Under the pieces are notes generated by a model, which was not told the origin of the DNA, ran no database searches, and saw only the letters and a program-made list of their open reading frames with translations. Positions 15,005 to 55,842 of a stretch of DNA of 64,000 nt are shown here, piece after piece. Origin of the DNA: a virus. The stretch covers positions 25,382 through 89,381 of IMG/VR virus record IMGVR_UViG_3300008113_000084. One strand, 5' to 3'. The position numbers and the translations under genes were made by a program. Within the stretch, counting starts at the first letter, position 1. Each line of letters opens with the position of its first letter.

Positions 15005-15526
15005 TCAAGAAAAATCTTTATACAGGCAGCTGGGCATGACGCCCTTTTGCCCTGAATACTTACCAGAGTATGGAACAATCTTTCCGTACGGTGTCTCGTA
15101 AGAAATCTGACAGACACACGTACCGGCGTACACCTTCAAAGGATGCACAACAGTAATTTCCAAAGTCCACTTGCCTTTGAAGCCCACGTCGCCGAAACCG
15201 GCTGTAACGTGAACCTGCATACCAAGCCGACCAACGGAACTGCGCCCCTCTATGTGAGGAACGTGATGAGGGGTCTCGGTGTACTCCTCAGTCTCACCCA
15301 AGTATAGGACTCCTGGGTTAAGGTATAAACCCTCTTCGGGTATTTTTATCTCCTGGACCGGATTGTCTCTGCGCATGTCCAAAATAGCGCTTTTGTAAAC
15401 AAGCAGCCTTTTGCCAAGGCGCAGGTTGTAACTGTTTGGGTTCACCTGCTCCAGCTTAAACGGCTCGATCACAATTCTTTTTTGGGCAATCTCTTCGACA
15501 ATAGCCGATCCAGTGAGAATTGACAT
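15005..15526 (-). CDS. dcd: dCTP deaminase
   Basis: NPNSYNLRLG, EGRSSVGRLG, AGFGDVGFKG-WTLEI and YSGKYSGQ. Confidence 0.93.
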   Translation of the reverse strand: MSILTGSAIVEEIAQKRIVIEPFKLEQVNPNSYNLRLGKRLLVYKSAILDMRRDNPVQEIKIPEEGLYLNPGVLYLGETEEYTETPHHVPHIEGRSSVGRLGMQVHVTAGFGDVGFKGKWTLEITVVHPLKVYAGTCVCQISYETPYGKIVPYSGKYSGQKGVMPSCLYKDFS

Positions 15527-19749: not shown

Positions 19750-21390
19750 TCAGTTTGGGTTCATGTCGTCAGCCGTGACGGATGGGACCCTGGCTGAGCG
19801 TGTCGCCCTCCTCTGTGGTGCTTCGTTAGTAACGGCAACGTTCCTAGCTTCTACGTGTTGTAAAGAATTGTTTACTATGCGGAACTCGTCGGTGAGGCGC
19901 AGACCCTGGCAGTAGGGAATGTACTCAAGAGACGGCATCTTCCTGGGTGGCTCGACGTCGCGTGCCTTCGACATGTTCATGTTGACGACAAGTTTGTCGT
20001 CGCTGTCCTTGGTGGGCTGCGACAGAGTGAAGCAGAACCAGCAGTTTTCGCCGAAGTCGGAAGCCTCGGACGAGTCTATGTGCGACAACAACGTGCCAGG
20101 CTTCTTGCTCAACGCAGCCTTGTTCATCTGCTGCAAAATCAAGGATGCGCAGTTAAACTTGTCAGCCACCTGCCGTCTGACGTAGTCGGGCAACCTGCCC
20201 AGGTGGTGTCGAATCTGCTCGGCGGAAATGCCGTTCAGGTCCATGTACCGCCTGGTGAAGGCCTTCGCATAGTCGAGTATGAACAGCGACACGCCCTTGC
20301 CGGACTCCTGGCAGTACGTGTCCGTCATCATCTCCAGGTCGGACACATAGCCCTTGCCGAGAACGTCAGACCCTTCGGTTGCCCCAGACAGATCGATGAT
20401 CTTCAAAAACTTATCGATCTTTTCTATAGCCTCTTCCAGCCGAACGGTCTCGGGAAGGGCTATGCCGTACTTGACTTGGTAGTCGTCTGGGTCGGTTGGA
20501 ACATAATCACGCAGTGGGTTGATGGAGTTGAAATGATCGCGAATGCGCCTAGCCGGAATCTTGGACAGGAACGACAGCACCCTAAACGATATTTCCTCGG
20601 GAGCGCCCTCGCAGTTTGCGAATACAACAATCTCAGACTCTTCTCCACGCAGGTGCTTGTTCCACTCTAGGCTGATACGGCAGGCAGCCGCCTGTGTGGC
20701 AACGGTGGTTTTACAGCCGCCGAACACGCCAAACAGACCGCTGACTGTCTTCCTGTGCAAACCGCCCTGGGTCAGCGCGTTCAGAAAATCCATGTGCTGG
20801 TCGAAGGACACATAGTTGTTCAGCCGCTGCCGTACTTGAGGAACAGAAGATATGGTGCTGCGATTCAACAACCGCTGAACTTCCAGCAGATTGCGACTGG
20901 CCGCCTCAAAGATATCGCCTGGGTTGGCTAACGACGCGTTAGAAGCGTTGAGCAAAGCGCTGCGCGTCGGCATGACTACGCGACGATCAATAATCAGTTC
21001 GCGCAGCAGCTGCGTTGCCACAAATTCTGTGGAACGCACTTCCTCTGGTGTCGAGATAGCCAGTAGCGAGTAGATGGCCAAGGTTTCTTCGCTGGCCACT
21101 TTCTCAGAAAAGCCTGAGTGGTTCTCCCTTGCCAGACTGGTCATCTCGGCTACCGCCAAGCCCTGCACGGGCAGTTCGTTGGTAGCGTCGAAGTGCGACA
21201 GTAGCATGCGTAGGAACGCTGCGTGAAATTCTTCGCCAGGGTTGTTGAGAATCTCAGGAAGAAATGAAGGCTTTACCTTGACGAACAGTACTTTGTTTCT
21301 GACCAGAACACCGAATATGACTATCAGATGTTCTGGTGTTATTGCCCTCTTTACAAGCGGCTGTCGATTGCCAGGTCTCTGGCCAAACAT
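19750..21390 (-). CDS. DnaB-like replicative helicase
   Basis: GVFGGCKTT, ANCEG, FILDYA, LQQMNK and SKAR; adjacent to the primase. Confidence 0.75.
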   Translation of the reverse strand: MFGQRPGNRQPLVKRAITPEHLIVIFGVLVRNKVLFVKVKPSFLPEILNNPGEEFHAAFLRMLLSHFDATNELPVQGLAVAEMTSLARENHSGFSEKVASEETLAIYSLLAISTPEEVRSTEFVATQLLRELIIDRRVVMPTRSALLNASNASLANPGDIFEAASRNLLEVQRLLNRSTISSVPQVRQRLNNYVSFDQHMDFLNALTQGGLHRKTVSGLFGVFGGCKTTVATQAAACRISLEWNKHLRGEESEIVVFANCEGAPEEISFRVLSFLSKIPARRIRDHFNSINPLRDYVPTDPDDYQVKYGIALPETVRLEEAIEKIDKFLKIIDLSGATEGSDVLGKGYVSDLEMMTDTYCQESGKGVSLFILDYAKAFTRRYMDLNGISAEQIRHHLGRLPDYVRRQVADKFNCASLILQQMNKAALSKKPGTLLSHIDSSEASDFGENCWFCFTLSQPTKDSDDKLVVNMNMSKARDVEPPRKMPSLEYIPYCQGLRLTDEFRIVNNSLQHVEARNVAVTNEAPQRRATRSARVPSVTADDMNPN

Positions 21391-21404
21391 AAAAACCTCC
21401 GTGA

Positions 21405-22088
21405 CTACACGGCAGAAAGCTCAGCCTCTTCAACAATGTCTTTGGGAATAATTTCTTTCCACAAAGAACTGTCGTAAGACCTTTTCTGCCTGAGATATTC
21501 GATGACAGCAGGCGACCTTGTTACCTGTGCTACAGCGTCTATTCCGTTGACGAGAGCAAGGTGGTGCCTAAACAACGCAGAAAAAGGCAGGGTTAAGTCA
21601 CGAACAATACTGTCGATGACTTTCTCTGGAGTCCAACCGTAACGTGATATGTAAACACTTCTGTTCTCCGCTTCTATCTCTAGGTTTTTAAAGTATTGGT
21701 ACAACTGTTGGTTTAGCGCGTCAACAGGTACCTCTTCTTTTCTACACAAATCCAGCGCAGCGCTGGACATGCAATCTGTCGGTTCTGGAGCGCGGGGGCC
21801 TCTAGTGTGTGTAAATCTTGTCTTGATCAGCTCTATGGGGTCCACGCCTGACTTAAAAGCAAACTGAGCTATCTTTGGCCATATAGGCTTATAGCTTTTA
21901 CCGTATTTGTCTTGCACTGGTCTTCTAGTAGAGCCAGGCCTGACATCGTCTGTTCCGTCCCATTTAGGTATAGGTGATAAACCATAGGAGCTAGGCCGAC
22001 CGCTCAGTCTCGACTCAAACTTTCTCCTTTCTGTAACGTATGTCTGCCGTATGCGCTGGTGCAGCTCTGTCTCTGCGTCTCTTTGCAT
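21405..22088 (-). CDS. hypothetical protein
   Basis: ORF between the two helicases; start MQRDAE. Confidence 0.7.
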   Translation of the reverse strand: MQRDAETELHQRIRQTYVTERRKFESRLSGRPSSYGLSPIPKWDGTDDVRPGSTRRPVQDKYGKSYKPIWPKIAQFAFKSGVDPIELIKTRFTHTRGPRAPEPTDCMSSAALDLCRKEEVPVDALNQQLYQYFKNLEIEAENRSVYISRYGWTPEKVIDSIVRDLTLPFSALFRHHLALVNGIDAVAQVTRSPAVIEYLRQKRSYDSSLWKEIIPKDIVEEAELSAV

Positions 22089-22089
22089 A

Positions 22090-23595
22090 TCACAGCTTAC
22101 CCCTTGTCCTGGCTGGAGGCTGCTCCCAGCCCTGTCGAACATACGTCCGTTTGCGCTCTTGGCTACGCCTGAAGAAACCGCTGTCGAAGTAGTCCATACA
22201 GTCTATGACCAAACCGTGATCTTTGCCAGAAGCGTCATGCCTACGAACAACACGGCCAGGAGCCTGTATGTCCATAATCTCACTGGCACGAGCGTCTGCT
22301 CGTATCAGTACTGACAGCTGAGGAAAGTCCACGCCTGTGGACCATACATCTGTAGCTATCACCTTCTTCAAGGTACCAGCTTCAAAATCCTTAGACATCT
22401 TGTCTCGAATCTGCGGTGTCATGGCAGGCTCGGTTAGCTTGTCGAGCATACCCTTCTTGACAAGCGCCTCGTACTGGTCGGTATCCATTTTGTCGTAGCA
22501 AAGTTTGAAGTCTGGCAGCTCTTGCTTGAGATAAACGGCATGCTCGAGCGTGCGCACCAAGATAAGCACCTGGTCGTCAGAGTCAAACTCGTTTGCCTTC
22601 TGGGCAATGAGGTTGTTCCTGAACTGGTTGCGCCAGATGCCCCAGCGCTCCTTGGCGGTGTCCTTCTTGAACTCGCATGGATTAACCGGCATGCGCACGT
22701 CAATCCACTCAACCTGAACAGGCAAAACCAGTCCGTGCTGTACAGCCTCCTGGTAAGTCATCTCAAAGATGCGTGGGCCGAACAGGCCTTCCAGTCGGTG
22801 GTGAGCACCGTCGAATCGACCCTCTGGTGTTGCCGTAAACCCGAACATGCGAACATGCTGGTACTTGGCTAGCTCGACGGAATAAGACGGGGCCGCTGCT
22901 TCATGCACCTCGTCGTATAGGACGATGTCAGCGCACTCGCCTGGCGTGTGGTCAACCAGATGCAGCGAGTCAGCCGTGATAACGGTAACCCGACCCCACC
23001 GACGCTGACCGCCGCCGACTTGACCGACGTCAGGAATGAACTTGACCAGATGGCGCAGCAATCGCTGCATAACATCTTTGCGCTTGGTGATGACGTGGAT
23101 ACGGGCGTTGGGATGCATCATGCAGATAGCGCCGAACAGGAACGACTTGCCGAAGCCTGTCGGTGCGACAATGATGCCTCCCTCGCTAACGGATATGGCA
23201 GCTATACACTCGTCCTGTTTGGCCTTCAAGTCCATCCGCGCGAAAACACGATTAAAGTCTGTGTGAAAGCGCTCAGGGTTTGGCAAAGGTGGAGGGTAGT
23301 CCACAATCTCAACTGGCGCGCCGAATTCCTGACACAATCCGTAAACCCTGTGGCTGAAGCCTTTGGGAAAAATTAGACGGCCTGTCTCGTCGTAGGCGAA
23401 GAGCTTTACTTCCTCGGATTGAAAGGGGGCGTATCCGCCTCGCTGATAGGCGTCCTGTCCGCGCAACTGGGATACGTGGGTGTAGGTCAGCTGGCTTTCA
23501 ATCTTCTTGATCATGCCAAAAGGCGGTTCACCACTGACTACTTCCAGCTCCGCCAGGTTGCCTTTTCTGTGCAGTCTGAAACGTGAAGACGACAT
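22090..23595 (-). CDS. superfamily 2 helicase (UvsW-like)
   Basis: APTGFGKS, DEVH, TATP, TGVDFP and QAPGRVVR. Confidence 0.92.
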   Translation of the reverse strand: MSSSRFRLHRKGNLAELEVVSGEPPFGMIKKIESQLTYTHVSQLRGQDAYQRGGYAPFQSEEVKLFAYDETGRLIFPKGFSHRVYGLCQEFGAPVEIVDYPPPLPNPERFHTDFNRVFARMDLKAKQDECIAAISVSEGGIIVAPTGFGKSFLFGAICMMHPNARIHVITKRKDVMQRLLRHLVKFIPDVGQVGGGQRRWGRVTVITADSLHLVDHTPGECADIVLYDEVHEAAAPSYSVELAKYQHVRMFGFTATPEGRFDGAHHRLEGLFGPRIFEMTYQEAVQHGLVLPVQVEWIDVRMPVNPCEFKKDTAKERWGIWRNQFRNNLIAQKANEFDSDDQVLILVRTLEHAVYLKQELPDFKLCYDKMDTDQYEALVKKGMLDKLTEPAMTPQIRDKMSKDFEAGTLKKVIATDVWSTGVDFPQLSVLIRADARASEIMDIQAPGRVVRRHDASGKDHGLVIDCMDYFDSGFFRRSQERKRTYVRQGWEQPPARTRGKL

Positions 23596-23620
23596 GTTGA
23601 CTCCGTGGACAAAAAGACAT

Positions 23621-23648
23621 CTATGTCGGCAGGGGTGTGCCGACATAG
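23621..23648 (-). terminator. 11-bp hairpin 3' of the IS110-like gene
   Basis: CTATGTCGGCA-GGGGTG-TGCCGACATAG, followed on the - strand by ATGTCTTTTTG. Confidence 0.55.
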
Positions 23649-23676
23649 GAGAGTATGCGCCTGTAAGAAAAACAGT

Positions 23677-24678
23677 CTAGGTTTTCTTACAGAAAGTTTC
23701 CCTAAACCGAACTACTTCTTCAGGGCTGGCGAAGAAGTGCTCTGGAACGAACAGGGACTCGTTCCAGGGATTGGGCATAGGGTACAGCAAGTTTAGCCAG
23801 CAGCCGTGTAGATACGATAGGAATTTCTGGCACGTGGCAAGAACAGCCTCGTCAAAATATTCTTTACGCTCTAGAGGGCTGCCGCTGATAAAAGACGACG
23901 CGACGTTAAAATAAGTGCCTAGCAGGAAATCCGTCTTGCCTGAGTCAGGCGTGATTAACATGGCGTCCCAGTTCTTGTAGGCCTGCCAGGAGCTGACCAC
24001 AAAACCTCGGCGCTGTGCCTTGGTGATAACGCCATCGTGGCCCTGCTCTTCGGACAGCCCGTGCTTGAGCTTGTTGACACCCATGTAGTCGTAATACTTC
24101 GACAGCTTGTTGGGGAAGAAAGTGTCAACAAACCAGCGAGGATCAATAGTCTGAGCGACGACCAGCATGCACGCATGATCGTTGACGCCTGGGACAAAAC
24201 GCAGGTATTTAGCCAGAGGAAGCTGCTCGTACAGGGCCATCAAAACATCCAGGTTAGCCGACACTGAACCAGGCTCAGCCAGGATGTGCGACATCGTGTA
24301 CACGATGTGATCGTCTTTGGTAACGCTGTGAAAGCCACCCAGAGTCGATGGATACTTCCAGCGACGCATGTTGAGCAAAACTTTTTCTGGGCAATATTCA
24401 TCGAGATTGATCAGCTCGACTTGAGGGCTGCAAACCTGTACGTCTTTCAGCTCTCCCTTAACTTTGGCTTCATACAAAGCCGTTATCATCCTGGCATTTC
24501 TGCTGTCACCAACCAACCGAACAGTCAGTTTCTTGTTTAGAAAAGAAGGGCTGTCGCAGTAGTCCTCGTAGAGTATGTTGGACGGCCTTGGTGTGCCGTT
24601 ACCTGAGATATACCACACTTCATCGTCGAGAGAGTTGTACAACTTGAGTGTGGTTGTTTCATCGGTAAGGACACCCAT
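23677..24678 (-). CDS. IS110/Nop-fold-like protein, apparently catalytically inactive
   Basis: LRFVPGVNDHACMLVVAQTIDPRWF..KLSKYYDYMGV resembles the Transposase_20 HhH region; VQVCSP resembles the IS110 VxVVNP motif; no DEDD residues or catalytic SG seen. Confidence 0.5.
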   Translation of the reverse strand: MGVLTDETTTLKLYNSLDDEVWYISGNGTPRPSNILYEDYCDSPSFLNKKLTVRLVGDSRNARMITALYEAKVKGELKDVQVCSPQVELINLDEYCPEKVLLNMRRWKYPSTLGGFHSVTKDDHIVYTMSHILAEPGSVSANLDVLMALYEQLPLAKYLRFVPGVNDHACMLVVAQTIDPRWFVDTFFPNKLSKYYDYMGVNKLKHGLSEEQGHDGVITKAQRRGFVVSSWQAYKNWDAMLITPDSGKTDFLLGTYFNVASSFISGSPLERKEYFDEAVLATCQKFLSYLHGCWLNLLYPMPNPWNESLFVPEHFFASPEEVVRFRETFCKKT

Positions 24679-24693
24679 GGTGCCTCCTCAGAC

Positions 24694-26820
24694 CTAATGC
24701 AGGTCTATTGTATGGTCGAATAAGTGTCCAATGTTCTTCTCGTGAGTTACCACGAGAATCTGCACACCGTTAGAGGCTGAAAATTGTTTTAATCGGTCAA
24801 AGGCTTTCTCCAACGCGCCCAGGTTAGCCTCGTCCAAACCCACCGTGGGCTCGTCAAGGCAAAGTAAACCCAAGTTAGCAGCGAAAGTGGAATTAACAGC
24901 CAACCTGTAGGCGATGGTCAGGATAACCTTTTGACCGCCCGACAACCTGGCTGCTGGTACTTTCTTAGACCCAAAATTCGCTGTGAATGATAGGTCTTGC
25001 TCTAACTCTATATTAAACGGAACGCCAATCTGAGCCAATGTGTTATTTAGCTCTGTGACAACCTTAGCCATGTACTTGTACGACAGCACCATAGGAAGCG
25101 CGTTGTACTTGAATACCTTTTTAAGGTTGTCAATGCGCTCGTTCCAAGAGTCGTGCAGCGCTGCGAGGCTGAGCTGGTTGCGCGCCGCTTCTATCTTTTG
25201 ATTGCAATTTTTGACCTCAGCTTCAGACAGGGCAATGTCCGTCTTCAGCTTCTGGATGCGCGACTTGGTGATTTTCAGCTCGGAAATCACGGTGTTTGCC
25301 GAGTTGACGCTGCTCTCGTCCAGGTCGGAGTAGCCCTTCAGCTCATCCAATTCCTTCTGCATTTCAGCTGTCTGGTGGTCCAGAGAGGTGCCAAGCCTGC
25401 CGCCCAAGACATCCAGGGCGTTGATTTTGTTACCAGTGGCGACGAACGAATCTTTCAGGATTTTCTTCTTTTCCAGTATTCCCTTGGCCTCGTCCCTGGA
25501 GACGGAGGGTTGGGCCACCTCAACCAGATCGGCCAGAGTTTTGTTGGCTGTCTCCAGTCGCTTGACGAAGTTGGTCTTCCAAGCCAGGTGCAGCACCTTC
25601 TTCTTGTCAAATGCCGCCGTGCTGGCGATCTGCTCCGTCAAGGCCGTGATGCTGTCGGACAGAGCCAGCAGCTCCTCCTTGGCCTCAAGCCACTTGTCCT
25701 TCAGGTTGCTGGCTGGAGTACCGCAGGTGGGACAGCTGGCTGACTCGTCCTCTGGGTTGATGGACGAGATGAACTGGTTGTGTTGGCGCTGCTTGAACTT
25801 CAAGCTGTCCAGAGTCAGGGTCACGGACTCCAAGTCCGTCAGGTAGTCGTAGGGTTGCTGGGGTTCTGGATTCAGCAGCTTCTCGGCCTCCAGGATGTTC
25901 AGGGCCTTCTGGGCCTGCTGCTGCTGGTGGAGGTAGCTGTCGTACTTGATCCACAGCGCCTCGACTTTCAAAGCCTCCTCAGCTGACGGCTCGATCTGGT
26001 CTATGGCGTCATGCAAAGCCAGCAGCTCATCGGTGAGCTCCTGGGTCTTGGCATCGTGCTCCGTCTTATCCTGCTCCAGCTTTTTGATCGCCTCCAGTCG
26101 GCTGGCTACAGAGTTCTCCAGCTTTACCTTTCTTGCCCACAGGCTGACGATGTTGCTGTACTGCAAAATTTCAGAGTCGAGATCGGTCTCGGAAGGCAGT
26201 GCTTCCAGGGCAGTCGTGAGGTCCTTGACAGCCTGCACCGCCTTGCTGAAATTGTCGTTAAGCTCCTGGAGGTTCTGCGAGGCGATGCCGACGGTGGACA
26301 GCTTGAGGCTGCCGTCAGACAGGTTGTCGCCAATCTTGTTCAGCTGCTCAATCTTGAACAGCTTCTGGAAAGCCGAGATTCGCTTCGCTGCCGACAGCGC
26401 CAGAGGACCAAAGTTGTCCCACTGCTCGACGAAAACGTATTGCCCGAGAATCTCCTTGTCTACCTCCAGGATGTGCAGCAGCTTCTCCAACACTTCCTTG
26501 TCCGAGGTGTATATCTTGTCGTTGACAAACAGCTGGCGGTCCACGGGCTCCAGCCGACGTAGCAGCCGCAGGTCCTGGCTGTTGTGTGAGAAGTGCAGGT
26601 CCACACTGCACTCTCCGCCGTCGGTGTTCAAGGAGATGTTCTCGGCTGCCTTGCCCGCATTCCTGCCGAAGTCGCCAGTCAAAGCGCCGTAGACGGCGTT
26701 TAGGATGTTTGACTTTCCCGAACCGTTAGGACCGACGATGACGTTCAGACCCTTCTGGAACTCGACGGTCCTGCTGATGTGCTGGCAGAAGTTGCGCAGT
26801 TTTACCTTCTTAAGAAACAT
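24694..26820 (-). CDS. sbcC: SbcC/Rad50 SMC-like ATPase
   Basis: GPNGSGKS, CPTCG zinc hook, LSGGQ, LDEPT and VTH. Confidence 0.93.
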   Translation of the reverse strand: MFLKKVKLRNFCQHISRTVEFQKGLNVIVGPNGSGKSNILNAVYGALTGDFGRNAGKAAENISLNTDGGECSVDLHFSHNSQDLRLLRRLEPVDRQLFVNDKIYTSDKEVLEKLLHILEVDKEILGQYVFVEQWDNFGPLALSAAKRISAFQKLFKIEQLNKIGDNLSDGSLKLSTVGIASQNLQELNDNFSKAVQAVKDLTTALEALPSETDLDSEILQYSNIVSLWARKVKLENSVASRLEAIKKLEQDKTEHDAKTQELTDELLALHDAIDQIEPSAEEALKVEALWIKYDSYLHQQQQAQKALNILEAEKLLNPEPQQPYDYLTDLESVTLTLDSLKFKQRQHNQFISSINPEDESASCPTCGTPASNLKDKWLEAKEELLALSDSITALTEQIASTAAFDKKKVLHLAWKTNFVKRLETANKTLADLVEVAQPSVSRDEAKGILEKKKILKDSFVATGNKINALDVLGGRLGTSLDHQTAEMQKELDELKGYSDLDESSVNSANTVISELKITKSRIQKLKTDIALSEAEVKNCNQKIEAARNQLSLAALHDSWNERIDNLKKVFKYNALPMVLSYKYMAKVVTELNNTLAQIGVPFNIELEQDLSFTANFGSKKVPAARLSGGQKVILTIAYRLAVNSTFAANLGLLCLDEPTVGLDEANLGALEKAFDRLKQFSASNGVQILVVTHEKNIGHLFDHTIDLH

Positions 26821-27946
26821 TGGCTACTCCCTGTAAATGCTCGTTGCGCATCTCTAACAGCTCCTGCTCGACATTTCCTGAATTGAAGATGCGCACGGCA
26901 TCCTTGTGGGCGACAGTGCTTTCGGAGAACCCTGTCTGTTCCACGCATTCAGATATGTCAACAAGCTCTTGTATGTGTTTACGTTCCACAGCTGCCGTGA
27001 CTTCACTTGAGTTGAAGTCAGTCGGAATGATTTCGTAATTCCAGTTGCGGAACTTGTCACACAGCAAGTCGTAAGCGTTAGGAATGTTGTTTTGATATCG
27101 CACACATACCAGCGGAGTGGCTATGTGTTCTGGCAAATCCCTGTGCGGCCATTCGATCAGTAAGTCCTCGTTAGTCAGGTTCATCAGTATGTCAAAATGC
27201 TTTTCAGACTTGAGCTCAAATAGAGCGAATGGCCTAGTCTTAAGACGATACTGAGTCCAACTAAGATCACTGTTCAAAATGAATATGAACTTGTGAGGAG
27301 GCTCATTAGTCGCCTGCATATTAATGGAGCCAGAAGACAAACACTCTGTGCCGTCTATGCGCAGAATCTCAGTCTTGTGGTAATCGCCAGTGTAGATAAC
27401 CTTGGCGAAAGCGGCGTTTTTGAACATAAAGTTCTCGTCGCTTTTCTTTATAAAGTCAGCCCATACCTGGTGCGTCACGTATAGGTCAAAGCGGTCCTTG
27501 CCTGCATAAGAGTGCATGACGCGACACTGATCGGCAAAGCGGTTGCCTGAGAACTCGATGTCTTGACCGACGACACGAAGACCCTGTATCTCAAACTCCT
27601 TGAACGGCTGGGAAGTCTTGAAGCTGTCAATATGGACGGCGTTGGAGCACAAGCTCATCCACGGAACTTCTGACAGCTCATGCTGGCCTTGCACGTAGAA
27701 AACAGGAATGCCGACGCGCTCCAACCGTTTCATCTGCTCAAAGCAGAATACGACAGACTCACTGGGCGGCTGTTTGATGTCGAAAAGATCGCCAGCAGCA
27801 ATTAGAGGAACATCCAGCTTTATGCAAAGATCAACGATCTGTTGCAGAGAGTAATAAGAATCCCTGTGAACATTTGGATGTTTCTTCCAAGAAAAAGGAC
27901 TCAGATGCCAATCGGACGTCAGCACCAGCAGGGGTTTTACAGCCAT
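26810..27946 (-). CDS. sbcD: SbcD/Mre11 metallophosphoesterase nuclease
   Basis: SDWH, AGDLFD, GQHE, THQ and GDYH; start MAVKP with AGGAG SD. Confidence 0.9.
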   Translation of the reverse strand: MAVKPLLVLTSDWHLSPFSWKKHPNVHRDSYYSLQQIVDLCIKLDVPLIAAGDLFDIKQPPSESVVFCFEQMKRLERVGIPVFYVQGQHELSEVPWMSLCSNAVHIDSFKTSQPFKEFEIQGLRVVGQDIEFSGNRFADQCRVMHSYAGKDRFDLYVTHQVWADFIKKSDENFMFKNAAFAKVIYTGDYHKTEILRIDGTECLSSGSINMQATNEPPHKFIFILNSDLSWTQYRLKTRPFALFELKSEKHFDILMNLTNEDLLIEWPHRDLPEHIATPLVCVRYQNNIPNAYDLLCDKFRNWNYEIIPTDFNSSEVTAAVERKHIQELVDISECVEQTGFSESTVAHKDAVRIFNSGNVEQELLEMRNEHLQGVANVS

Positions 27947-28021
27947 AAATCTTTCTCCTGGGTTGAAGTGCTGATGCGGGTCTATACAATGTCCCAAGAG
28001 GCACGTTGAAAGGAGTTCAAA

Positions 28022-28201
28022 ATGCTCGTTGTGACGCGGAGACCTAAAGAGATTATCAGAATAAATGAGAACATAGTTGTAGAGGTTTTAATCATCAACA
28101 ATGGAAGTGTCAAGATAGGCATACAGGCTCCAAAAGATATACCGGTGATGCGTGGTGAATTAAGAGGTTCGTGCAGAAAGACTAGAAAGGATAGCGAATA
28201 A
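28022..28201 (+). CDS. csrA: carbon storage regulator CsrA (59 aa, missed by the ORF track)
   Basis: MLVVTRRPKEIIRINENIVVEVLIINNGSVKIGIQAPKDIPVMRGEL; AAGGAG SD; stop overlaps the next ATG. Confidence 0.92.
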   Translation: MLVVTRRPKEIIRINENIVVEVLIINNGSVKIGIQAPKDIPVMRGELRGSCRKTRKDSE

Positions 28202-28833
28202 TGTCAATCAAGTGCGCTGTTGTCGTGAGTCATCCTGCTGGCGGCGGCAGTCTTATCGCTAAGACGCTTATGGCCATGGGCTTCAAAACTCCAGGCATTC
28301 CGTCAGACGAAACCAACGACTGGAACCTGGTGGCTGTCAATCAGATCATGTGCGACAGAGCGCACAAACCAAAGATATCCCTAGGCATGGCCAAGCACGC
28401 CATGGAGCCTATGACGGGATACATCGACGACAAGATCAAAGAGGGCCAAAACTGGATCATGCACGATCCAATGCTGTGCATGACATTTTTCGAGTTCGCG
28501 CAGCTGCTGAAGGAAAAGGGAGTAGACTACAAAATAATAATAGCCCTGCGTAAGCCCCACTACAGCGCGCTGGAAATTGTCAGGTCAGACAAAGAATGGA
28601 CGCTTGAAGAAGCCTCCAGCCTGTTGGGAAAATACATCGTAGCCAGGTCTCTAAACACAGACCGCTTCTATCTGGAGAACAAAGAAGACGTGTCGCGTGT
28701 GCTGCATCTGGACGTCAACAGTCTGCTGGACGACACAGACAAGGCAGTAGAGCTGTTGGCTACAGAAATTGGCGTCGAGCTGACTGACGAGGCTAAGGAA
28801 GCAATTGGAAAGCTGCTCAAGCCTGCGTCTTGA
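28201..28833 (+). CDS. sulfotransferase-fold protein (degenerate)
   Basis: VVSHPAGGGSLIAKTL (cf. GMHRSGTS), WIMHDP (cf. WKDP) and IALRKP. Confidence 0.5.
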   Translation: MSIKCAVVVSHPAGGGSLIAKTLMAMGFKTPGIPSDETNDWNLVAVNQIMCDRAHKPKISLGMAKHAMEPMTGYIDDKIKEGQNWIMHDPMLCMTFFEFAQLLKEKGVDYKIIIALRKPHYSALEIVRSDKEWTLEEASSLLGKYIVARSLNTDRFYLENKEDVSRVLHLDVNSLLDDTDKAVELLATEIGVELTDEAKEAIGKLLKPAS

Positions 28834-30274
28834 CGCCTTCAGCCGTTCTGGTGGTAGACATGTCAGGAACCATGTCTACCAGCATCAGCTGACCGCCGCT
28901 GTTCACAACGAACTCTGCGCCAGGAACAACAGAAGACACGTACTCGGAACCCTTGACAAGGATGTCCGGTTTGACCGCCTCGATCAGAGGCACCAGCTCT
29001 TCCTGCTCAAATGTGACAACGGCATCAACGCACTCCAGGGCCGCAACCATACGCGCCCTGTTGGCAGCGCCGACAAACGGCCTGCCTTCCCCTTTGAGTG
29101 CCTTGATGCTGGCGTCGCTATTCACACCAACGAGAAGATAGCCACCAGCGAATTTAGCCTGCTCGAGCAGATGCACGTGGCCTGCGTGCAATAGGTCGAA
29201 GCAGCCGTTGGCGAATACAATCTTCTCGTTGGTAGATCGGAGTTGCTGCGCCCAAGACAGCGCAGCCTGCTGAGACATCAGCTTGGACAGAGAGCTAACC
29301 TGCGTGGGTCGGGCCATAAACAGGTCCAGCTCCATGCGGTGAACAACAGTAGTGCCAGGCTTGGACACAGCCAAAGCGCTGGCCGCGTTGGCAAAGACGA
29401 TAGCGTCCCGAATCGAGCGGCCCTCGCAGATGGCTACAGACAGCGCGGCTATAAAAGTATCTCCAGCTCCTATGACGTCTGTCTTGCAGGTTGTGAAGGC
29501 AGGCAAGCTGCCAGCCGTTTTGGTGTTGTTGTCGTACCAGCTGCAACCGTTTTGCGCCCGAGTTACCACGGCCAGGGACAGGTTGGGCAGACGCTGCGCC
29601 AACTGCGCGGCAAGAGACTCGCAAGCGGAGTCGCTTTTGGAAGACACGGCTCTGGCATCGACACCAAGCACAGCACAAGCCTCGTTGAAATTGGGCGTGA
29701 TACAGTCGGCGCTGTGCCAGTCCAGCATGCCCGACGGCTTGGCGTCTACGAACAGAAAAATATTGGGGTGGCTTGAGCGTATATCCTGTAGGGCCTGGCG
29801 CAGCTCTGGGCTGACAGCTCCCTTGGCGTAATCAGAAACAATGATGGCCTTGATGTCCCTGCTAACGCTTCTGAGCTTGAACAGAACATTCTCCTGAAAC
29901 TTGCCGTAAGTGGGCGAGGCGTCTGCCCGCATCTCTCTGTCGGTGCGCAGCACCTGGTAGCCTCCGACCATAATGCGCGTCTTGACAGATGTGTGGTACT
30001 CAGACAGCGTCGTAACATCTGTCGAGACATTCATAGTGTCGAGGCTGAATGTCAGGCGCTTGGCTTCGGGGTCAGCTCCGACCGGCGAGAACAGGATAAC
30101 GGGGCTGTTGAGAGCCTGGATCGACGAAGCGACGTGGGCGGCACCGCCTGGGCAAAACATCTCGTACTTGGTGGTGACGACAGGAACGGGGGCCTCTGGC
30201 GATATCCTGTGTACGTCGCCGTGGACGTAGTGATCCAGGATGGAGTCGCCGACAACCGCGATAATGGTAGACAC
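28817..30274 (-). CDS. hldE: bifunctional heptose-7-phosphate kinase / heptose-1-phosphate adenylyltransferase
   Basis: RISPEAPVPVV, GGAA, SDYAKG, TPN and DVIGAGDT (PfkB kinase); NGCFDLLHAGH, NSDAS..LKG..RP and LVKG (adenylyltransferase). Confidence 0.95.
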   Translation of the reverse strand: MSTIIAVVGDSILDHYVHGDVHRISPEAPVPVVTTKYEMFCPGGAAHVASSIQALNSPVILFSPVGADPEAKRLTFSLDTMNVSTDVTTLSEYHTSVKTRIMVGGYQVLRTDREMRADASPTYGKFQENVLFKLRSVSRDIKAIIVSDYAKGAVSPELRQALQDIRSSHPNIFLFVDAKPSGMLDWHSADCITPNFNEACAVLGVDARAVSSKSDSACESLAAQLAQRLPNLSLAVVTRAQNGCSWYDNNTKTAGSLPAFTTCKTDVIGAGDTFIAALSVAICEGRSIRDAIVFANAASALAVSKPGTTVVHRMELDLFMARPTQVSSLSKLMSQQAALSWAQQLRSTNEKIVFANGCFDLLHAGHVHLLEQAKFAGGYLLVGVNSDASIKALKGEGRPFVGAANRARMVAALECVDAVVTFEQEELVPLIEAVKPDILVKGSEYVSSVVPGAEFVVNSGGQLMLVDMVPDMSTTRTAEGVKTQA

Positions 30275-30286
30275 GTCAGTCCTTTC

Positions 30287-30463
30287 TCAGCTGTCGCCGC
30301 CGTCGCATTTGAAAACTCTTGGGGTTCTTTCCCTGGAGTTCGAGTCGCTACAGTTGCCACAAATCCTGTTGGCGGTCATGTCGTACGACTTGAACTTCTT
30401 GCCACACTTCAAACAGTTGCGCTCACCTGGCTTTCTGTTGGGAAAATACCCTTTGTCTTTCAT
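30287..30463 (-). CDS. 58-aa zinc-ribbon protein (not in ORF track)
   Basis: MKDKGYFPNRKPGERNCLKCGKKFKSYDMTANRICGNC... Confidence 0.65.
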   Translation of the reverse strand: MKDKGYFPNRKPGERNCLKCGKKFKSYDMTANRICGNCSDSNSRERTPRVFKCDGGDS

Positions 30464-30475
30464 TCCTTGGGAACC

Positions 30476-30964
30476 TCAGTCGGACAAGTCATCGGCGTCC
30501 TCTGACTCGTCGTGCGCAGCAAACAGCCTGCCCCCAAGCCCGTCTTTGCGCTTTCGGTTCCTGCAAAACTTCTCAAGCATCACGGAAGCGTCCTTGTAGT
30601 TCTTGAACTCCGTGAGCGTGAAAGTCACTTCAGGATCACCGACGGCCTTGGCGTAGGGCTCAGTCCAAGCGTCCGCTCTTGTATGCTGCCATCTACTGTT
30701 AAATATTTCAAGAACATCTATTGCTTCTTGATATGTGTAAGTCTGTTCATCAAGCGGAAACGTTTTAAGCTTAATAAACACATATATTTCCCTGTCGTCT
30801 TTAACTTGGCCGTAGTTTACTTTGACATCCTGGTCTGACGGCAGATAAGGAATATGAGGAACAACCACTTTAAACTGTCGTCCCTTGAAGTTCTTGAGGA
30901 AGTCTTCAATAGATGGCTGCATAAGCTGACCCATAAAAAAATAGGCTTGAGTTTGTCGTCTCAA
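30476..30964 (-). CDS. hypothetical protein
   Basis: 162-aa ORF; start uncertain. Confidence 0.6.
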   Translation of the reverse strand: MRRQTQAYFFMGQLMQPSIEDFLKNFKGRQFKVVVPHIPYLPSDQDVKVNYGQVKDDREIYVFIKLKTFPLDEQTYTYQEAIDVLEIFNSRWQHTRADAWTEPYAKAVGDPEVTFTLTEFKNYKDASVMLEKFCRNRKRKDGLGGRLFAAHDESEDADDLSD

Positions 30965-33976: not shown

Positions 33977-33997
33977 AAATTGCCTTTCTTAAAAGCT

Positions 33998-34112
33998 AAC
34001 CCTGGAGGGACTCAGACCCTCATTTCCCCTTACGCGTTGGGGGTGTCCTCGTTGCGGCTCTCAGGCGACGCGCACGCTGATCCGCAACATGCCTCAATTA
34101 GACGACAGGGTT
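33998..34112 (-). ncRNA. candidate structured RNA element (multi-way junction)
   Basis: AACCCTG/CAGGGTT closing stem encloses GTTGCGG/CCGCAAC, CCCC/GGGG and GAGGG/CCCTC hairpins; intergenic. Confidence 0.45.
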
Positions 34113-37818: not shown

Positions 37819-38312
37819 GTTTTCCTCCGCAAGTTTTGCGGAGCTTGCGTCACTATTCTCCGCATTTTGGCTGCGTTAGTTACCCGACCTTTCGTTTAAC
37901 ACTTCCATGACTATGTCGATAAGCACGTCAGTGAACCCTTCGTTGTAATAGTCCATCAACCTATCAACAATTCTTTTGAACTCGTCGTCACTGATGTTGG
38001 AAGGTTTGATCTCTATTAGCTCCAAGTCCTCGTCTGATACGAACAGAAATGGAGTGCCTTTTCTGTCAATTTCCAATACCGTCTCCTTGTGTGAAAAACC
38101 CCACCCAGCCGAGAAGGCTGGGTGGGGGTGGCGTCCTGTGTGTTGCAAGGGCATCACCCACGATCCTTGGGTGATTTTGGTGGCTTGGCTCGACACCTTG
38201 CGGCAGAGCCAGTCGTTGGGTACGAAAAGTTTACCCCCTACCCTTGCAAGAGCTATTGACCATGTAACCAGCTCTCCACACAGGTGATCGTCTCCAGGCT
38301 GGGCCTGGTGTT

Positions 38313-55467: not shown

Positions 55468-55842
55468 CTGAGTCGCTCGTTGTTGACGTAAACACTGTAC
55501 GAGTAGTCCAAGTCACCGCTTAGATATTCTAGTGTTCGCAGGGCAATCGCTTGTCTAAGCGACGCCCCACACGGCCCTATAGCTGCGTACAGGGCCGTTC
55601 CGAAAGTCTCCTGCCATACAAGCTCAAGAGACTGATTGTTCTCGAATACGCCAATGGTGGGGGTCGAGGGGGCGTGGAAGCGTTCCACTCGCGGGACCAG
55701 AACGCCTCGACTACGCCCCCTCGGCTTGTAACCCGTCAACGGCCATGCCCTGACTTCCTTGTGGGTCAGGTAGCAGTCTGTGCAGACAGCTGACAAAACC
55801 CGCTCACTGGCTATGACCGTGACCAACACGTTAGCGGCCCAG
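55468..55842 (-). ncRNA. candidate large structured RNA inside the operon
   Basis: At least 7 hairpins, a terminal closing stem and a possible pseudoknot; G-U wobbles work only on the - strand. Confidence 0.6.

Follow-up and report, generated by a model that had tools for sequence, protein, structure and literature searches.

An array-less TasR-like protein, predicted to be catalytically dead, as a core gene of an sbcCD-helicase operon in phages

We analysed a 64,000-nucleotide (nt) stretch of viral DNA, here called the window (positions 25,382 to 89,381 of the 89-kb IMG/VR virus record IMGVR_UViG_3300008113_000084, from an uncultured freshwater phage and estimated to be 43% complete), and within it a 333-residue open reading frame (ORF) at 23677-24678 on the minus strand, referred to as gene X and its product as X. 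What is new here is the placement of an array-less TasR-like protein, with an apparently dead RuvC-like domain and no predicted long coiled-coil, as a core cistron of a phage sbcCD-helicase operon. Because the residues for cutting are lost, no guide array was found and the place behind the sbcCD genes is fixed, the fold has probably been taken over for DNA replication or recombination. The reading we favour, with the case for and against it about evenly balanced, is that X is an exapted, non-catalytic subunit that binds nucleic acid and assists SbcCD and/or a superfamily 2 (SF2) helicase when DNA ends are processed or when replication depends on recombination.

TIGR-Tas, IS110 and box C/D proteins all share one fold, and all of them are guided by RNA. 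The TIGR-Tas family as defined includes TasR proteins with an active or inactive RuvC domain, mostly from phages and candidate phyla radiation (CPR) bacteria (Faure et al. 2025, PMC12045711); IS110 has been linked to Nop5 (Vaysset et al.), and dead TasR and TasA are RNA-guided repressors (Xu et al. 2026, bioRxiv 10.64898/2026.09.09.750476). In X the fold appears stripped of its nuclease residues, coiled-coil and array, yet it is under purifying selection and coupled to sbcC in a large clade of widespread lake phages. X would be an exapted, compact TasR-like member of the TIGR-Tas/IS110 Nop-domain superfamily, with a RuvC-like N-terminal and a Nop-like C-terminal domain. Its features in the window are:

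23677-24678, minus strand: gene X, a 333-residue ORF for an array-less TasR-like protein, predicted to be catalytically dead; stop codon at 23677-23679
24349-24678, minus strand: X residues 1-110, RuvC/RNase H-like N-terminal domain with an apparently lost catalytic site
24181-24348, minus strand: X residues 111-166, predicted short-helix linker replacing the long coiled-coil hairpin of TasR, IS110 and Nop5, with an invariant SLGGWH-type motif (G114, G115)
23680-24180, minus strand: X residues 167-333, C-terminal domain, Nop-like, bearing the helix-hairpin-helix-like motif FIP...DPRW...YxGx common to Tas and IS110 proteins
24683-24689, minus strand: Shine-Dalgarno sequence GAGGAGG of gene X, inside the 15-nt spacer past the sbcC stop codon (24694-24696)

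Conservation, fold and active site of X

An earlier sequence-only reading had singled out this ORF for two peptides resembling IS110 recombinases, LVGDSRNARMITALYEAK..KDVQVCSP and LRFVPGVNDHACMLVVAQTIDPRWF..KLSKYYDYMGV. Both are present, at residues 55-85 and 159-201 respectively, and belong to the best-conserved segments of their family, which comprises 520 clusters at 50% identity (E<=1e-3; 270 of these at E<=1e-10) and whose members are nearly all 290-350 residues long. Since the quoted stretches are conserved across so large a family, the IS110/Tas-like motif is a family feature and not a chance match. The family consensus reads VRxxGxxxNAxLI...VCSPxV...RxxPExVLxxMR...SxGGWH...HPxWxxLSFIxxLxxxxxAxLLAxIxDPRWYxDxxxPxRxxKLxxYLGLxP...FLWR...LRASQxF...LFVPExFF, and 15 close homologues share 44-90% identity with X. 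Comparison with the closest relative gave a nonsynonymous divergence (pN) of 0.12 against a synonymous divergence (pS) of 0.75 at saturated sites, similar to sbcC, and indicates that X is a real gene under purifying selection.

The protein itself matched nothing in Pfam (E<=0.1) or PHROGs. A tblastn search with X and its relative P0020 was likewise without a match among 50,697 phage records, so no cultured phage relatives were found. Searches with X returned weak matches only from BFVD and unnamed clusters only from the ESM Atlas, and prokaryotic relatives were limited to one 13-kb contig of a metagenome-assembled genome among 185,579 species genomes.

An AlphaFold2 model of X built from a 75-sequence alignment scored highly (predicted local distance difference test, pLDDT, 91.8; predicted template-modelling score, pTM, 0.91). 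It shows the two domains that characterise TasR, a RuvC-fold N-terminal domain (active or inactivated), here with strand order b1-b2-b3-a1-b4-a2-b5, and a Nop-type C-terminal domain, which is the best-conserved part of the family. In a Foldseek search of the PDB the first ten chains all came from the bridge-RNA recombinases IS621 and ISCro4 (E 5e-4 to 9e-3, probability 0.99-1.0, about 340 columns), followed by TIGR-TasR and TasH. Overall, TasR, TasH and IS110 were the top structural matches, which bears out the IS110/Nop-type assignment made earlier from motifs, and the models point to TasR, not IS110, as the nearest solved relative. No Nop5 or Prp31 chain was among the 50 best matches of three structural searches. 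The protein at the D11 position of T5, annotated as 'ssDNA-binding protein', was also compared and is unrelated.

Sequence-level evidence for kinship with IS110 and Tas proteins is weak and agrees with the fold. The PHROG family phrog_4285, named 'transposase', was matched by 13 of the 75 family members over the HPxW...YLGL stretch (best E 8e-6), and PF02371 was touched by two of the 75 (E ~0.08). The PF02371 profile found no match in the whole record, and the X profile nothing among PDB sequences at E<=10. Comparison of X with IS4321 in hhalign was not significant, either as a single sequence or with a 15-sequence profile (69-94% identity; E 0.57), and the shallowness of that IS110 profile makes this weak evidence. 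As the IS4321 transposase matches phrog_2199 and not phrog_4285, no tie between the 'transposase' label and IS110 could be made. An AlphaFold-DB entry with the motifs of the X family (QHPVY..L.FIG.L......A..VGSILDPRWF, FLYRR and ATQAFLAYL..AWLD) is included in the alignment behind the Tas profile of Faure et al. 2025 (their Data S1).

Neither the DEDD acids nor the catalytic serine of IS110 had been apparent in the sequence-only reading, and the family alignment agrees on both. Strand 1 of the RuvC-like domain holds Lys12 (K in 61 and R in 7 of 75 sequences), and strand 4 holds Arg54 (65 of 75), three residues before the invariant Gly57 and in register with the Glu of the IS110 'EaTG' motif; no sequence has an acid at either position. 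Judged from this alignment, the first two RuvC catalytic acids are lost. The only positions with Asp/Glu at about 60% are 93 and 98, in the helix after strand 5. Replacement of acids by Arg or Lys agrees with the account of the natural dead TasRs PateTasR and CsTasR, whose catalytic residues are replaced or covered by Arg (Xu et al. 2026). Past YLGLxP the sequence is variable and the model of lower confidence; no Ser or Thr is conserved there and no column across residues 161-282 reaches 60% Ser/Thr, so the IS110 serine nucleophile is absent from X.

The linker between the two domains also differs from that of TasR. In TaTasR the coiled-coil is formed by K109-D138 and A142-H168, two helices of about 28 residues (Xu et al. 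2026), whereas the 56 residues 111-166 of the X monomer model contain DSSP helices of 14, 4, 9 and 5 residues only, and the model of a 32%-identical relative has the same short helices. The models thus predict that the long dimerising coiled-coil has been lost. In addition, the X of the window has F325/T328 where most relatives carry a Y/H dyad, which is assigned to guide processing in dual-repeat Tas proteins.

These differences set X apart from the characterised proteins of the superfamily. It is only 12-13% identical to TaTasR (PDB 9MTY), PateTasR and CsTasR, and whereas TIGR-TasR is a stand-alone one-gene locus, X is a cistron of an sbcCD operon without a TIGR array, a predicted long coiled-coil or, in the window protein, the Y/H dyad. 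Compared with IS621 (PDB 8WT6/8WT9) and ISCro4 (9T56), X does not keep the DEDD tetrad, lacks the Ser nucleophile and matches neither PF01548 nor PF02371; and whereas IS110 recombinases are mobile, with a bridge RNA and ends, X is single-copy and immobile, with no bridge RNA or ends and with flanks of 15 nt and 81 nt. The developers of TIGRFinder (Xu et al. 2026) mention in passing a branch of compact TasR proteins from dense viral genomes that has neither arrays nor the coiled-coil, and leave its nature open. The X family shares every described trait that could be tested and, matched by description, is probably this branch. The preprint gives no gene context, function or statement on catalytic residues for it; added here are the fixed placement behind sbcC in a replication/recombination operon, the clade-wide vertical inheritance and the absence of arrays from whole genomes.

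Gene order and coupling to sbcC

Gene X is flanked on the same strand by genes for DNA replication and recombination:

26810-27997, minus strand: sbcD, Mre11-like phosphoesterase, first gene of the operon (weak Metallophos_2 match); ahead of sbcC in all loci
24694-26820, minus strand: sbcC, Rad50-like ATPase (Pfam SMC_N, AAA_23 and SbcC_Walker_B; phrog_77), directly upstream of X
22090-23595, minus strand: SF2 helicase (ResIII and Helicase_C; phrog_16), downstream of X
21405-22142, minus strand: 245-residue protein, directly ahead of the DnaB-like helicase gene; no Pfam or PHROG match, and a tblastn match in only about one quarter of related loci

The full order, all on one strand, is sbcD, sbcC, X, SF2 helicase, 245-residue protein, DnaB-like helicase, DnaG-type primase and PolA, the last at most 26% identical to the PolA of T5-like phages. 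The sequence-only reading had X co-oriented between sbcC and a UvsW-like helicase behind a Shine-Dalgarno sequence, and this arrangement was confirmed: the ATG of X lies 15 nt downstream of the sbcC stop codon, with GAGGAGG 4 nt upstream of it. The helicase ORF opens at 23646. Its relatives align only from residue 18 and tblastn alignments start at residues 11-29; the start is probably the ATG at 23595, with GGAG ahead.

Synteny across related phages, which had been suggested as a check, proved constant. Loci with X number about 140 in IMG/VR, in phages of roughly 150-225 kb. A search anchored on X recovered 61 IMG/VR loci, mostly contigs of roughly 150-225 kb and two of them complete with terminal repeats, and all had the order sbcD-sbcC-X-helicase-...-dnaB-primase-polA, even at 24-29% X identity. 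With the helicase as the anchor instead, 78 of 80 loci carried X on its upstream side in the same orientation; of the remaining two, one starts at the helicase and the other has just 2 kb of upstream DNA. The 89-kb record holds one copy of X, and this single copy together with the fixed synteny in all related loci indicates that there are no IS ends, as the earlier reading had remarked.

The two junctions of X behave differently. In 67 of 70 distinct loci X starts within -32 to +27 nt of the sbcC stop, with overlaps of 4, 17 or 20 nt common, whereas X and the helicase are separated by anything between 30 nt and 3.6 kb, with one to five intervening ORFs; a near-invariant sbcC-X junction thus stands against a variable X-helicase gap. 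X is a virus-only, vertically inherited core gene, most tightly tied to sbcC.

In most relatives an ORF of about 164 residues (147-178) lies between X and the helicase (L011:8916-9410, L018:8932-9429, L049:9041-9577, L007:9095-9538 and others). It has no Pfam match. Neither the source record (G000) nor its two nearest near-complete relatives (G001 and G002) have it, so X can do without it. At the sbcD end of the operon, a full-length 485-residue gene (28817-30274, minus strand) appears from its translation to be bifunctional and HldE-like (ADP-heptose synthesis); it is kept at this position in many relatives at 24-77% identity.

The search for a guide RNA

The sequence-only reading had proposed that X is RNA-guided, with structured RNAs of the window as candidate partners. 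While its calls on the fold and the dead active site stood, neither the RNA-guided role nor the RNA partners gained support. Arrays were sought in G000 and in three relatives (G001-G003; 93%, 91% and 100% complete) by applying the TIGRFinder rules in simplified form (box C CNA, 9-nt spacer, box D YG), in which dual-repeat arrays are chains at 4-5-nt gaps and stem-loop units are paired intervals at most 15 nt apart with flanking stems. None of the four genomes contained a dual-repeat chain of at least four or a stem-loop unit with a stem of at least 8; shuffled sequences gave 0-1. Since tigRNAs may lie inside tas genes (Xu et al. 2026), X itself with 150 nt on either side was scanned in 69 distinct loci at a threshold of 6 base pairs (bp) for the stem, and one unit was found against 0.6 expected.

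Scans for tandem repeats and k-mer spacing found no regularly spaced short repeats beyond collagen-like coding repeats. The latter, at G000:C1:400-9200 (upstream of the window) and G001:61600-76200, are short repeats spaced at multiples of 9 nt in large ORFs; they belong to collagen-like Gly-X-Y fibre genes and dominate the repeat scans of these genomes.

Rfam at gathering thresholds returned four tRNAs and nothing else, and the candidate RNAs of the window fared no better as partners of X. The candidate at 38094-38309 had no counterpart in five relatives, the closest included, and that at 55468-55842 is conserved in the closest relative only. The third (33997-34112, minus strand) is tRNA-like, with nothing tying it to X. 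It has a 7-bp acceptor stem and a T-arm, and its D region is extended by a long inserted hairpin with compensatory changes (GCGG/CCGC versus GCAA/TTGC). The identity to G001 and G002 is 83% and 86%, well above that of the flanking sequence, and neither ARAGORN nor Rfam calls this RNA. A 409-nt 'gap' after polA, conserved in G001 and G002, was also considered as an RNA and rejected: it is a 173-residue gene right after polA (15005-15526, minus strand), dCTP deaminase/dUTPase-like as read from its translation, which was hidden in the greedy ORF map by the overlapping stop-to-stop frame of the next ORF. This gene is conserved in G001 and G002 with a coding-type substitution pattern.

The non-coding DNA on the helicase side of X contains two hairpins:

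23596-23676, minus strand: X-helicase spacer, 81 nt, with a terminator-like match; it contains hairpin 2 in full and hairpin 1 by its 3' arm
23692-23661, minus strand: hairpin 1, spanning the X stop codon
23648-23621, minus strand: hairpin 2, an 11-bp stem followed by a T-run

The closest relative retains hairpin 2, with a G-U change, and G002 does not. Elsewhere in the window the spacer has about as much complementary sequence as chance predicts (8 matches of at least 10 nt against 6.3 expected), and the element is most likely an mRNA attenuator or stability element. Overall, these searches yielded no positive evidence for a guide RNA of X.

Possible roles of X

We propose that X, made from the third cistron of the sbcD-sbcC operon with its translation coupled to that of sbcC, binds nucleic acid as a non-catalytic helper of the phage nuclease SbcCD (Mre11-Rad50-type) and/or of the helicase. 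While DNA ends are processed, or while replication depends on recombination, X would hold or bend DNA that is branched, unwound or hybrid. A precedent with the same superfamily architecture exists in Nop5/Nop56/Nop58 of the box C/D snoRNP scaffold, where an inactivated RuvC-like N-terminal domain serves as a non-catalytic scaffold that recruits another enzyme, and we model a proposed scaffold role of X in SbcCD on this docking function of the dead domain of Nop5. The analogy is incomplete in that Nop5 dimerises through a coiled-coil, whereas none is predicted in X. No fibrillarin or L7Ae homologues turned up in the X operon, and no search was aimed at them. If X is a structural partner of a viral Mre11-Rad50 complex, it would be a second Nop5-like exaptation of the fold into a non-catalytic scaffold, and its fixed operon context names SbcC, SbcD and the SF2 helicase as concrete candidate partners.

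Several points weigh against this proposal. The link between X and SbcCD consists of adjacency and translational coupling, which are circumstantial, and the catalytic-site equivalences were drawn from the register of secondary-structure strands rather than from residue-level superposition; the roughly 60% Asp/Glu at positions 93 and 98 leave some room for a remnant metal site. Binding of RNA is what the Nop-like domain is chiefly known for, and guide RNAs are used by every characterised relative; X might therefore have an RNA partner that has so far gone unrecognised. The array search followed published motif rules, which a divergent or single-copy guide would escape. Finally, at an isoelectric point (pI) of 5.8 the X of the window is acidic, and its charge alone is no obvious sign of nucleic-acid binding, despite a family median of 8.7.

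An alternative that we consider unlikely, yet the best of the remaining ones, is that X is still RNA-guided, an array-less Tas protein that takes its guide from elsewhere (for example one distal small RNA, a phage transcript, a primer or R-loop RNA) to aim SbcCD or the helicase or to mark the origin or genome end. Every characterised relative (TasR, TasH, TasA, IS110 and Nop5) binds its guide RNA through the Nop-like domain, the very domain best conserved in the X family, and if X still uses RNA it would link guide RNAs to replication or repair. Against this, the four genomes contained neither arrays nor stem-loop units at the thresholds used and the surroundings of the gene in 69 loci had hardly more than expected; non-coding space beside X in the operon amounts to the 81-nt hairpin spacer with its chance-level complementarity, the candidate RNAs are either not conserved or tRNA-like, and the models lack the coiled-coil through which a TasR dimer grips a single dual-spacer RNA.

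Doubtful, and somewhat less probable again, is a role as a replication-initiation or helicase-loading factor that recognises an origin, fork or R-loop and recruits the SF2 or DnaB-like helicase, rather than working with SbcCD. The near-constant position upstream of the SF2 helicase, the shared operon with the DnaB-like helicase, primase and PolA, and the lack of a loader or initiator recognisable in the operon by Pfam or PHROGs would all suit such a factor, and a dead RNase H-like domain could bind RNA:DNA hybrids. However, it is the X-helicase gap that varies and the sbcC-X junction that is nearly invariant, and the 245-residue gene directly ahead of dnaB is the better-placed candidate for a helicase loader, a candidacy that stems from its position.

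We would hold as rather improbable a bolder version of RNA use, in which X is a Tas-derived protein that has lost array and dimerisation module alike and gives the viral Mre11-Rad50-type nuclease and helicase a specificity or sensing subunit. With an RNA from another part of the genome, be it a primer, a transcript of an origin or R-loop, or one distal small RNA, X would steer the processing of DNA ends or the change between origin-dependent and recombination-dependent replication. If true, it would provide the first RNA-guided component of a core DNA replication/repair machine. Even less expected is an RNA-guided or sequence-specific transcriptional repressor of phage or host genes. Guided dead TasRs and TasA of stem-loop TIGR systems repress transcription (Xu et al. 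2026) and the dead TasRs share the dead-RuvC and Nop architecture with X; known repressors, however, have arrays and coiled-coil dimers, whereas for X no array was found and no coiled-coil is predicted, and strict clade-wide coupling to sbcC translation is not expected of a regulator. An active or recently decayed IS110-family transposase inserted in the operon, as the resemblance to PF02371, the PHROG named 'transposase' and the IS621/ISCro4 Foldseek matches might suggest, is refuted by the synteny and residue data and has next to no chance of being correct, since X has no Pfam IS110 match or significant hhalign score, carries K12 and R54 at the first two DEDD positions, lacks the serine, and is a single copy under purifying selection and without non-coding ends, its position unchanged across about 140 loci with identities as low as 24%.

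The favoured reading of X as a non-catalytic subunit of SbcCD and/or the helicase concerns a phage that recurs in environmental data. The stretch 21000-28200 is present in full in 20 lake/freshwater metagenome runs (and four labelled 'fungus') from at least 13 studies dated 2019-2025, with no RNA sequencing run among the matching runs.

A separate observation concerns the 190-kb relative G002, which carries two CRISPR-like mini-arrays, at L075:13582-13795 and L076:10278-10490 (G002:C1:13582-13795 and 30278-30490), the first immediately after a tRNA gene. Each consists of four copies of a partly palindromic 26-28-nt repeat, CTTATCCACGCACGCGTGGGTGAGAC, with a period of 61-62 nt and unrelated spacers; the reverse complement of this repeat presumably resembles type I-E repeats.

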